A DNA stretch of 32,919 nt from a virus (lineage: Duplodnaviria > Heunggongvirae > Uroviricota > Caudoviricetes): the IMG/VR virus record IMGVR_UViG_2690316321_000007; one strand, given 5' to 3'. The notes below the pieces were generated by a model, which saw only the letters and a list, made by a program, of their open reading frames with translations, was not told the origin of the DNA and searched no databases. Positions 25,137-26,311 of the stretch are shown here, piece after piece; within the stretch, counting starts at the first letter, position 1; each line of letters begins with the position of its first letter. A program made the translations under genes and the position numbers.

Positions 25137-25141
25137 ACATC

Positions 25142-25163
25142 GCCGCCTGCGGGCGGCTTTTTT
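25142..25163 (+). terminator. Rho-independent terminator after Q
   Basis: GCCGCC-tgcg-GGCGGC stem-loop followed by T6. Confidence 0.7.
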
Positions 25164-25305
25164 ACACCCCGTCATCACCCCCTCACACGCTCACCACCGC
25201 ACAAAACACCCAGCAGACACACCAACGCCTCAACGGGCAGACTAAGCGCCGTCACGACGCGCTGAGACGCTGAAAAAATAAAATCAGCACCACCGCCAGC
25301 GCGCA

Positions 25306-25324
25306 GTGCTTTCCCCGCCTCGCC
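25306..25324. other. cos site: 19-nt cohesive-end sequence
   Basis: GTGCTTTCCCCGCCTCGCC is the reverse complement of GGCGAGGCGGGGAAAGCAC, the P2 cohesive end as I recall it; lies about 170 bp after Q, as expected for the Q-proximal genome end. Confidence 0.65.
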
Positions 25325-25895
25325 CGCCCGCTTCATGTGGCGGTTTTAATGCAGTTGCATAGATACTATGGATCCGCACCAGCTCTGACCGCGAGCAGCT
25401 GGAACGGGCATCCCCGACGCATGCAAAAACATTCACTTGTTGCATGCACGGCTTATTAAATGACAAATCAACTTAAGCGTCACCGCAGCTCCCACAAAAA
25501 AACGTAACACCATGATTTTAGTGATATTTATGACTTTTTCAATTGCTTATTTAAGTCCGCCATATTGAAACCGTGCATTTTTTAGCCACCAATAACTTTA
25601 AAAAATTTACATTGCTTTCAATACCTTATCATCCGTAGTCCCTGCTTTTTACTTTGAGCTATATCAAAAAAAGCTCAAACATCCTTGATGCAAAACCAGT
25701 ATTACACAACATAAAATGCAACCAGAAACAACGACATACTATATGTTGTGTTGTTCAGGCTCTCTGTTCGGTGATATGCCAGATCACTTTGCGTTTAAAC
25801 AGAGCATTATTTCAGGGCAAGACTTCGCTAAATAGTAACTCCGCCTCAGAAGCGCATATATCGGCGGAAATTGCCCTCTGCTTACAGGAGGAGAT

Positions 25896-26009
25896 ATGAA
25901 GAAGTGCTATTACTGCATTCTCGTTCTGGCCCTCTTTGGCTATCCATATGGTAGTCCAAGTGGTTTGTCAGTAAACGTCAGTAATATCCATGTAAGTATT
26001 ATTCTTTAG
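25896..26009 (+). CDS. Candidate small hydrophobic protein (37 aa, MKKCYYCILVLALFGYPYGS...)
   Basis: ATG 4-5 nt after a strong SD AGGAGG; ends 11 nt before a strong terminator; lies in the AT-rich region at the P2 old/tin position. Could equally be the N-terminal stub of a lost gene. Confidence 0.35.
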   Translation: MKKCYYCILVLALFGYPYGSPSGLSVNVSNIHVSIIL

Positions 26010-26020
26010 TATGCTTCAAA

Positions 26021-26051
26021 CAAAAAAACCACCTGCCAGGGTGGTTTTTTT
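26021..26051. terminator. Bidirectional Rho-independent terminator (A7-CCACCTG..CAGGGTGG-T8)
   Basis: GC-rich hairpin flanked by an A-run and a T-run; ends both the small ORF (plus) and the early operon ending with A (minus). Confidence 0.7.
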
Positions 26052-26311
26052 GCGCCTGTCATCATTCCGATGAAAGACTAGCAAGACTTCGCTCGAGATG
26101 AATTATGCTTCGACAAAAGGTCACTCGCAATGGTTTTATTAGCCGAAATAGATGCTCTTTTATGACTCGAATCAAATAGCTACCTTAAATTACATGCTAG
26201 CGATTCAATACAATTTAGCCTTCTACTTCAGCATGCTATTGCTCCTCATCTGCCTTAGAGGCGCTCCGCATAATCCATTCAAAGGCATATAAAATCACGC
26301 TGCATTTTTAC

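Follow-up and report, generated by a model that had tools for sequence, protein, structure and literature searches.

A candidate mobile cassette of the type I toxin-antitoxin kind in the Q–cos–A interval of a P2-like prophage

We analyzed a stretch of DNA of 32,919 nucleotides (hereafter the window) from a virus of the Caudoviricetes, IMG/VR record IMGVR_UViG_2690316321_000007. It holds a P2-like prophage with genes P and Q on the + strand and gene A on the − strand. Between Q and A lies a short AT-rich interval, which a first-pass annotation had described as carrying a cos match, an open reading frame (ORF) of 37 amino acids (aa) behind an AGGAGG ribosome-binding site, a hairpin, and a 13-bp direct repeat. 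All of these features were found where it had placed them. It had overlooked a predicted convergent gene for a small RNA (sRNA), which accounts for the repeat, and a promoter resembling that of nrdDG. Sequence comparisons indicate that positions ~25640 to 26143 of the window form a conserved ~500-bp cassette that is autonomous and horizontally mobile, and not just the 264-bp unit bounded by the repeat. We lean towards reading it as a cassette of two genes of the type I toxin-antitoxin class. Its parts are as follows.

25598 to 25723, + strand: nrdDG-like promoter of the small-ORF messenger RNA (mRNA), with FNR-like sites and the −10 element TAAAAT (25712 to 25717); transcription start site predicted near 25724
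25654 to 25667: FNR-2-like site TTGAGCTATATCAA, by sequence likeness
25685 to 25698: FNR-1-like site TTGATGCAAAACCA, by sequence likeness
25704 to 25751: pair of NrdR-box-like sequences, ACACAACATAAAATGC (25704 to 25719, weak) and ATACTATATGTTGTGT (25736 to 25751, strong), with a 16-bp linker, overlying inverted repeat I6
25724 to 25895, + strand: structured 5' untranslated region (UTR) of about 172 nt, with hairpins at 25762 to 25804 and 25840 to 25868 and a long-range stem 25815 to 25821/25877 to 25882
25816 to 25829, + strand: site in the mRNA leader predicted to be the target of the sRNA, made of repeat copy 1 plus one G.U pair
25886 to 25891, + strand: Shine-Dalgarno sequence AGGAGG
25896 to 26009, + strand: 37-aa ORF, stop codon included, with a hydrophobic, signal-like product
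26021 to 26052: intrinsic terminator, bidirectional, on which mRNA and sRNA converge, with arms 26021 to 26033 and 26040 to 26052
26019 to 26094, − strand: predicted sRNA and candidate antitoxin of about 74 to 76 nt, with a 5' seed, hairpin 1 (26054 to 26078) and the terminator hairpin
26095 to 26130, − strand: predicted sRNA promoter, with −35 TTGCGA (26130 to 26125), a 17-nt spacer, −10 CATAAT (26107 to 26102) and a 7-nt discriminator

Carriers and genes of the cassette

The DNA common to all lineages begins with the promoter that precedes the ORF and ends with the opposite-strand promoter just past repeat copy 2. Among 5,426 complete genomes of E. coli, 152 hold at least 80% of positions 25600 to 26311, always adjoining gene A of P2-like prophages. 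Carriers include E. coli W and E. coli E24377A (NC_009801.1, ~1006.7 to 1007.1 kb). By identity (about 99, 95, 91, or 85%), these P2-like relatives sort into groups, all of whose members have both repeats, the ORF, and the hairpin. Outside this phage type, full-length homologues are 65–75% identical. The IMG/VR contig L017 has a 72%-identical copy of positions 25642 to 26141, placed between a protelomerase gene and the gene of a 1,383-aa Toprim replication protein. Because of these neighbours, we regard L017 as a telomere phage of the N15/phiKO2 type. A distant BLAST search of PLSDB with positions 25640 to 26143 returned 388 plasmid records, matched over nearly the full length at ~74% identity and belonging mostly to conjugative IncFIB/IncFII plasmids of Klebsiella; the IncFIB(K) plasmid pKP64477a is one Klebsiella carrier. 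In the records examined the matching stretches have no listed gene, in a PLSDB gene table that is incomplete. Finally, an exhaustive HMMER search with the peptide identified two further relatives of 37/38 aa, each on a contig of an inovirus-like prophage where the complete cassette lies beside inovirus genes (Secretin, Zot, DUF2523).

We examined twelve cassette copies and aligned ten representative sequences for invariant blocks. Pairwise identity among the seven lineages is 65–73%, except for two P2-like groups (89%) and two plasmid variants (83%). In all seven, across four kinds of mobile element, both copies of the repeat stand at fixed positions relative to a promoter and to the AUG. The longest invariant blocks among the ten aligned sequences are the terminator (31 nt), the 5' end of the sRNA (CAAGACTTCGCTC, 13 nt), and the −10 element of the sRNA promoter (8 nt). 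Scans of genome contigs (GTDB species representatives) and one metagenome match gave spurious matches only (L040, L043), and the GTDB species representatives evidently lack the cassette. It is also absent from the first 150 kb of plasmid pKPN3 of K. pneumoniae MGH 78578 (PMC10907235). Two further candidates, L016 and L025, were rejected as relatives: they share the terminator hairpin only, and L025 is a ColE1 RNAI region. The cassette has the same placement in the P2-like phage (26021 to 26312 of the window) as in the N15-like one (L017 5464 to 6276): it follows the replication gene, A in the former and the Toprim gene in the latter, about 200 bp downstream. The sRNA is co-directional with that gene, and operon read-through could raise antisense or sRNA levels in lytic growth.

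The product of the ORF at 25896 to 26009 is MKKCYYCILVLALFGYPYGSPSGLSVNVSNIHVSIIL. The ORF has 37 codons in every lineage but one, where it has 38. Pairwise ratios of nonsynonymous to synonymous substitution (dN/dS) across lineages lie between 0.14 and 0.41, and the variable columns are distributed 18/10/27 over the three codon positions, with the third the most variable. The conserved pattern of the peptide is M(K/N)(K/R)..(Y/L)CIL(V/L)L(A/T)L(F/L)GYPxG(S/G)(P/Q)SG(L/W)S.... This is a gene for a small (<60 aa) hydrophobic protein under purifying selection, as in type I toxin-antitoxin systems, and a toxin-like peptide is the best reading. Sources that annotate the peptide list it as a hypothetical protein, e.g., ECW_m2278 of E. 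coli W. It has no match among the Pfam, NCBIfam, PHROG, or PADLOC models, and its Klebsiella variants are absent from a collection of 15 billion proteins. The other ORFs of the interval, at 25716 to 25835 (+), 26152 to 26292 (+), and 26062 to 26175 (−), are not conserved or drift as neutral sequence. The last of these has a TTG start and 37 aa, and runs across the sRNA promoter and the 5' end of the sRNA. Its length is kept in all four P2-like groups, with 9 of 37 residues changed at ~88% DNA identity, but L017 lacks it. Constraint on the sRNA gene probably produces this ORF as a side effect.

On the opposite strand, the sRNA promoter scores 9/12 in the promoter scan. All lineages have TTGCGR, 17 nt, CATAAT, and exactly 7 more nt before GAGCGAAGUCUUG, with spacer and discriminator sequences that vary. 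The predicted start, at 26094/26093, is the first base of repeat copy 2, and the RNA would end at the bidirectional terminator. Its 5' seed, GAGCGAAGUCUUGC, is the complement of repeat copy 2 (26081 to 26094) and, with 13 nt, the second-longest invariant block of the cassette, behind the terminator. The predicted RNA folds at −31.9 kcal/mol (z = −5.1) into a 5' region, hairpin 1, and the terminator hairpin. Hairpin 1 is formed in every lineage by unrelated sequences: UCAUC/GAUGA, GUCCUAA/UUAGGGC, UCCUCU/AGAGGA, and UUCUUU/AAAGAG.

The terminator had been called strong and bidirectional, rightly so: its 13-nt arms are 100% complementary around a 6-nt loop, with A7 on one side and T7 on the other. 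The consensus terminator scan did not list the hairpin at 26021 to 26052, presumably because the T-run was absorbed into the stem. The terminator core AAACCACCTGCCAGGGTGGTTTTTT is identical to the hairpin of the RNAI/ori region of a ColE1-type replicon (L025 5920 to 5946). This identity explains a sub-threshold match to RNAI in Rfam, where no family, including Sok, IstR, OhsC, and OrzO, reaches its gathering score and the best matches are driven by the terminator. Taken together, a small protein gene plus an sRNA gene very probably make up a functional cassette.

Promoter, leader, and predicted base pairing

The promoter of the ORF is homologous to that of nrdDG in E. coli. The 66-bp stretch at 25629 to 25694 is 89–94% identical, in the records listed, to the treC–nrdD intergenic region of the host, and it was matched in all of the E. 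coli genomes searched (5,426/5,426). The homology with nrdDG runs from about −125 to the −10 element and includes two FNR-like sites upstream of the −10 element. It is present in every cassette lineage and is therefore ancestral to the cassette. We compared the NrdR-like boxes with the NrdR probes of E. coli nrdDG and nrdHIEF (PMC12176259); in the nrdDG probe, a 15-bp linker separates the boxes GCACTATATATAGACT and ACCCAATATGTTGTAT. Both boxes have close copies in L055 (with a 26-bp linker), L017, and L060.

The E. coli nrdDG promoter, which is FNR-activated and NrdR-repressed, is thus resembled in both FNR-like sites and, in several lineages, in two 16-bp NrdR-like boxes. There are also differences. 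The homology ends just past the −10 element or box 2, and the transcribed region is unrelated to nrdD. In the window, the upstream box is degenerate, with the spacing shifted by an insertion of ~10 bp. In E. coli, the FNR sites of nrdDG reportedly lie at −64.5 and −33.5. From these resemblances we infer that the peptide mRNA would be activated by FNR and possibly repressed by NrdR.

The predicted mRNA begins with a structured leader. Four base pairs of the leader helices show compensatory double changes, and the covariation score was reached in 0 of 500 shuffles. A hairpin loop kept in every lineage, AAGCGCA (25851 to 25857), could pair with UGCGUUU (25790 to 25796), which lies in the internal loop of the upstream hairpin, over 7 bp, one of them G.U. 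Both sides are invariant, and the contact might be a pseudoknot or kissing interaction.

The direct repeat would tie the two genes together. The sequence GCAAGACTTCGCT occurs exactly twice in the window, at 25817 to 25829 and 26081 to 26093. Since the two transcripts converge, this direct repeat in the DNA makes the 5' end of the sRNA complementary to the leader. In the window, the contiguous helix has 14 bp, 13 of them Watson–Crick and one G.U. Other copies measured have 15–16 bp, and a hand count gave 17 bp in L060. Every lineage thus has, at the sequence level, an adjacent sRNA gene complementary to the mRNA of the candidate toxin (14–17 bp), which is another feature of type I systems. The 3' end of the target site lies 66 nt upstream of the AUG in the window, and the distance is 64–67 nt in the ten copies measured among the 12. 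All differences between copy 1 and copy 2 inside the helix are compatible with G.U pairing, with one position found as G-C, G.U, and A-U, and no disruptive change affects the 14 core pairs. On these observations, the predicted sRNA is likely to control the ORF by way of the repeat. We also considered that sRNA binding might free the strand facing the Shine-Dalgarno sequence. This was rejected, as constrained folding of nine sequences gave no consistent change in the accessibility of that sequence.

The Q–cos–A interval

The surroundings of the cassette within the prophage are given below; the first two rows after the end of Q are context and lie outside the cassette.

25136, + strand: end of Q
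25142 to 25163, + strand: intrinsic terminator of the portal gene Q, GCCGCC-TGCG-GGCGGC (25142 to 25157) followed by TTTTTT
25306 to 25324: P2-type cos 19-mer in the joined prophage form, an exact match to the reverse complement of GGCGAGGCGGGGAAAGCAC
26144 to 26311: non-coding spacer from the cassette to the stop codon of A, found only in cassette-carrying peduoviruses
26312, − strand: end of A

The reverse complement of the cos 19-mer reads GTGCTTTCCCCGCCTCGCC. Homology with P2 cosL covers query positions 1 to 188 and stops near 25324. Beyond it, the GC content is 0.32–0.44 across ~25400 to 26300, with flanks at 0.52–0.60. The spacer at 26144 to 26311 accompanies the cassette solely in P2-like phages, and the ORFs on its + strand are not conserved. 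There is no recombinase gene in the 1.2 kb between Q and A. Just right of cos, at 25419 to 25447, we noted an 11-nt inverted repeat (GCATGCAAAAA/TTGTTGCATGC). The group at 85% identity lacks positions ~25460 to 25541 of the window, a gap that falls precisely after this inverted repeat.

The complete minimal arrangement of 1.17 kb is present in 71 complete E. coli genomes. Matches to its AT-rich part are fewer than those to its cos-proximal 220 bp, which are found in more than 2,100 E. coli genomes. In other peduoviruses, ~770 bp stay beside A, and extra cargo lies between these and cos. Examples are the Salmonella phages MET_P1_103_31 and P2DC1, whose cargo includes genes for CapP-like M78 peptidases. 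Such an IrrE/M78 peptidase gene adjoins the cassette in L001 (1948 to 2433, − strand) and L002 (1017 to 1502, − strand), with CapP as the best PADLOC match (E = 1e-30). It is accompanied by ORFs without a family match, and the group could be an uncharacterised defence system.

In P2-like phages, the interval between gpQ, cos, and gpA is a hotspot for anti-phage defence (Rousset et al. 2022, PMC9122126). A survey from 2026 reports that it came across no P2 genomes with both main defence hotspots free of genes (PMC13586616). In near-identical prophages (L003, L004), the interval from Q to A has no annotated gene in RefSeq/PGAP, and its description as a minimal old/tin hotspot holds. Occupants consisting of a small ORF and an sRNA may escape hotspot censuses that are based on proteins.

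Proposed mechanism, rival readings, and known systems

We propose the following mechanism. The nrdDG-like promoter would start an mRNA of ~330 nt near 25724, with a structured leader of ~172 nt, that encodes the 37-aa peptide with its hydrophobic N-terminus. On the other strand, a constitutive-looking sigma-70 promoter would start an sRNA of ~74 nt at ~26094, so that the two transcripts converge on a single bidirectional terminator. The first 14–17 nt of the sRNA would then pair with the leader site 64–67 nt upstream of the AUG. This pairing may block peptide synthesis by occlusion of a standby site and/or cleavage by RNase III, as in OrzO–zorO and IstR-1–tisB; refolding is a further way in which it might act. 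The peptide would be made once the mRNA outruns the sRNA, as could happen under anaerobiosis, disturbance of the nucleotide pool, or loss of the element. Whether all this amounts to a toxin-antitoxin pair is, in our view, a little short of an even call. The biological role that we infer in the P2 old/tin hotspot is to maintain the element and/or to exclude phages; across carriers, it could lie in plasmid or prophage maintenance, phage exclusion, or anaerobic and nucleotide-stress physiology.

Several observations weigh against the type I interpretation. The peptide resembles no known type I toxin family, and its hydrophobic stretch is short (~13–15 residues). The window helix, at 13 Watson–Crick pairs plus a G.U, falls below the 15 nt that suffice for OrzO. 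Blocking the target in silico led to no consistent change in the accessibility of the Shine-Dalgarno sequence. The covariation of the intermolecular helix was no better than in shuffled controls (261–305 of 500); as variation is too low and shuffles do equally well, the support for pairing comes from joint conservation and geometry. Not all lineages have good NrdR-like boxes: the first box of the window is weak, and those of L056 are decayed. Finally, both transcription start sites are predictions.

The rival that survives best leaves the architecture unchanged and takes the peptide not as a toxin but as a small membrane or secreted protein regulated by the sRNA, a conversion or fitness factor of the lysogen or plasmid under anaerobic or nucleotide stress. 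The peptide has a signal-peptide-like N-terminus (MKK and ~13 hydrophobic residues), followed by a conserved GYPxGSxSG turn and a tail of alternating polar and hydrophobic residues, and the promoter looks like that of a regulated metabolic gene. A comparison can be made with TimP/TimR, whose endogenous expression is reportedly tolerated. However, the cassette is found on plasmids, in a plasmid-prophage, and in prophage defence hotspots, as addiction or exclusion modules typically are. Our analysis does not separate a toxin from a non-toxin, and we consider the second rather unlikely.

The sRNA could instead be the main product, regulating host or other phage genes in trans, with the small-ORF mRNA as one target or sponge. 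Its seed is the most conserved element apart from the terminator and lies at the extreme 5' end, and the terminator has a long U-tail, as in many Hfq-dependent sRNAs. However, the leader site is the only match to the seed complement (with at most 2 mismatches) in the window, and the ORF and target always accompany the sRNA. We judge this reading improbable.

For the unit that the repeat encloses, the first-pass annotation had suggested a gene for a small toxin-like peptide, a stub left by a deleted cargo gene, or a small inserted cassette that kept scars of duplication or recombination. The toxin-like gene and the small cassette turned out to be the best direction, and the ORF plus terminator is indeed part of a small autonomous cassette. 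The repeat was also rightly taken as unlikely to arise by chance: with one mismatch allowed, at least two matches occurred in 0 of 100 shuffles, and we estimate the chance of any exact 13-mer pair within 1.2 kb at ~0.01. The scar and the stub found no support. As scars (target-site duplications or crossover points) of a 264-bp insertion, the two copies would explain why ORF and terminator are flanked by an exact direct repeat. A presence-absence polymorphism of the 264-bp unit, to be expected on that account, was not found among related prophages. A synthetic query spanning the 264-bp deletion junction found matches in 150 E. coli genomes; in each of the 15 records listed, the match consisted of two pieces 264 bp apart. 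Among the rows inspected, no variant had an empty site or a single copy. All seven lineages have the two copies, each at a fixed functional position, neither a transposase nor an integrase nor a terminal inverted repeat is present, and the unit that actually moves between elements has ~500 bp and reaches well beyond the repeats. Scars are thus very improbable, and the repeat is most likely the signature of the sRNA seed and its target. A 3' stub of a deleted cargo gene, or the leader peptide of a transcription attenuator, would fit the shortness of the ORF, the terminator 11 nt further on, and sub-threshold matches to Phe_leader in Rfam, but this can practically be set aside given the constant length (37–38 codons), the own Shine-Dalgarno sequence and promoter, the purifying selection (dN/dS below 1), the status of the 68–97-aa gene calls in databases as upstream read-through calls of the same locus, a next gene downstream that in every context is convergent or unrelated and never co-directional, and Rfam matches that are terminator-driven and far under the gathering scores.

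Going further than the type I reading itself, one may picture a new type I family whose toxin promoter was copied from an anaerobic ribonucleotide-reductase promoter. It would be an addiction or abortive-infection device gated by FNR (oxygen) and NrdR (dATP/ATP pool), a minimal occupant of the P2 old/tin hotspot, traded among P2-like, N15-like, and filamentous phages and the IncF resistance plasmids of Klebsiella. As a whole, this picture is unlikely and offered as speculation. If the type I cassette is confirmed, an unannotated family of small proteins and sRNAs is present in ~3% of complete E. coli genomes and in hundreds of clinical Klebsiella IncF plasmids, and an apparently gene-free P2 defence hotspot is not truly empty. 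It would also tie a peptide of mobile elements to the FNR/NrdR logic of host nrdDG, for which we found no earlier link to type I systems in the literature. We found no description of the peptide, seed, or cassette either, in a searchable literature that is incomplete, and a prior description is possible. For genome scans, a short direct repeat around a tiny ORF and a bidirectional terminator can mark a convergent sRNA and its target.

The closest functional analogue would be zorO–orzO. There, the UTR has ~180 nt, and OrzO pairs through 18 nt at its 5' end with a site 73–91 nt ahead of the AUG; a stretch of 15 continuous nt is enough, and RNase III is required for repression (PMC3919570). As in this system (and in tisB–istR-1, shoB–ohsC, and dinQ–agrB), a small hydrophobic peptide is encoded behind a structured 5' UTR of ~170–180 nt, and the 5' end of a short adjacent sRNA can pair with 14–18 nt of the leader ~65–90 nt upstream of the AUG, far from the Shine-Dalgarno sequence. 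In contrast, the genes of the cassette are convergent with one bidirectional terminator, whereas the known loci are divergent, and its promoter is nrdDG-like where the known ones are LexA-controlled or constitutive. No sequence or profile similarity to the Hok, Ldr, Ibs, TisB, ShoB, ZorO, or DinQ toxins, or to known sRNA families, was detected.

With hok/sok and the plasmid addiction modules, the cassette has in common a compact pair of small peptide and antisense-type RNA on conjugative plasmids, plasmid-prophages, and prophages, and this distribution is consistent with maintenance or exclusion roles. It differs from hok/sok in that no mok-like overlapping frame is conserved across lineages and there is no match to the Hok family. 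Moreover, the predicted sRNA has no cis overlap with the 5' region, the sole cis overlap being the terminator of ~32 nt. In txpA/ratA and bsrG/SR4 of Bacillus, the antitoxin RNA runs towards the toxin mRNA, and the 3' ends of the two overlap (PMC3919570). The cassette is likewise convergent with a 3' overlap, but this overlap is the terminator hairpin only, and the complementarity is a separate contact between seed and leader that derives from the DNA repeat. Finally, the cassette shares the gpQ–cos–gpA hotspot with the old/tin cargo of P2 and in relatives lies beside CapP-like M78 peptidase genes. Compared with the defence systems of this hotspot, it is far smaller, without a PADLOC match, and without a gene annotation in RefSeq.

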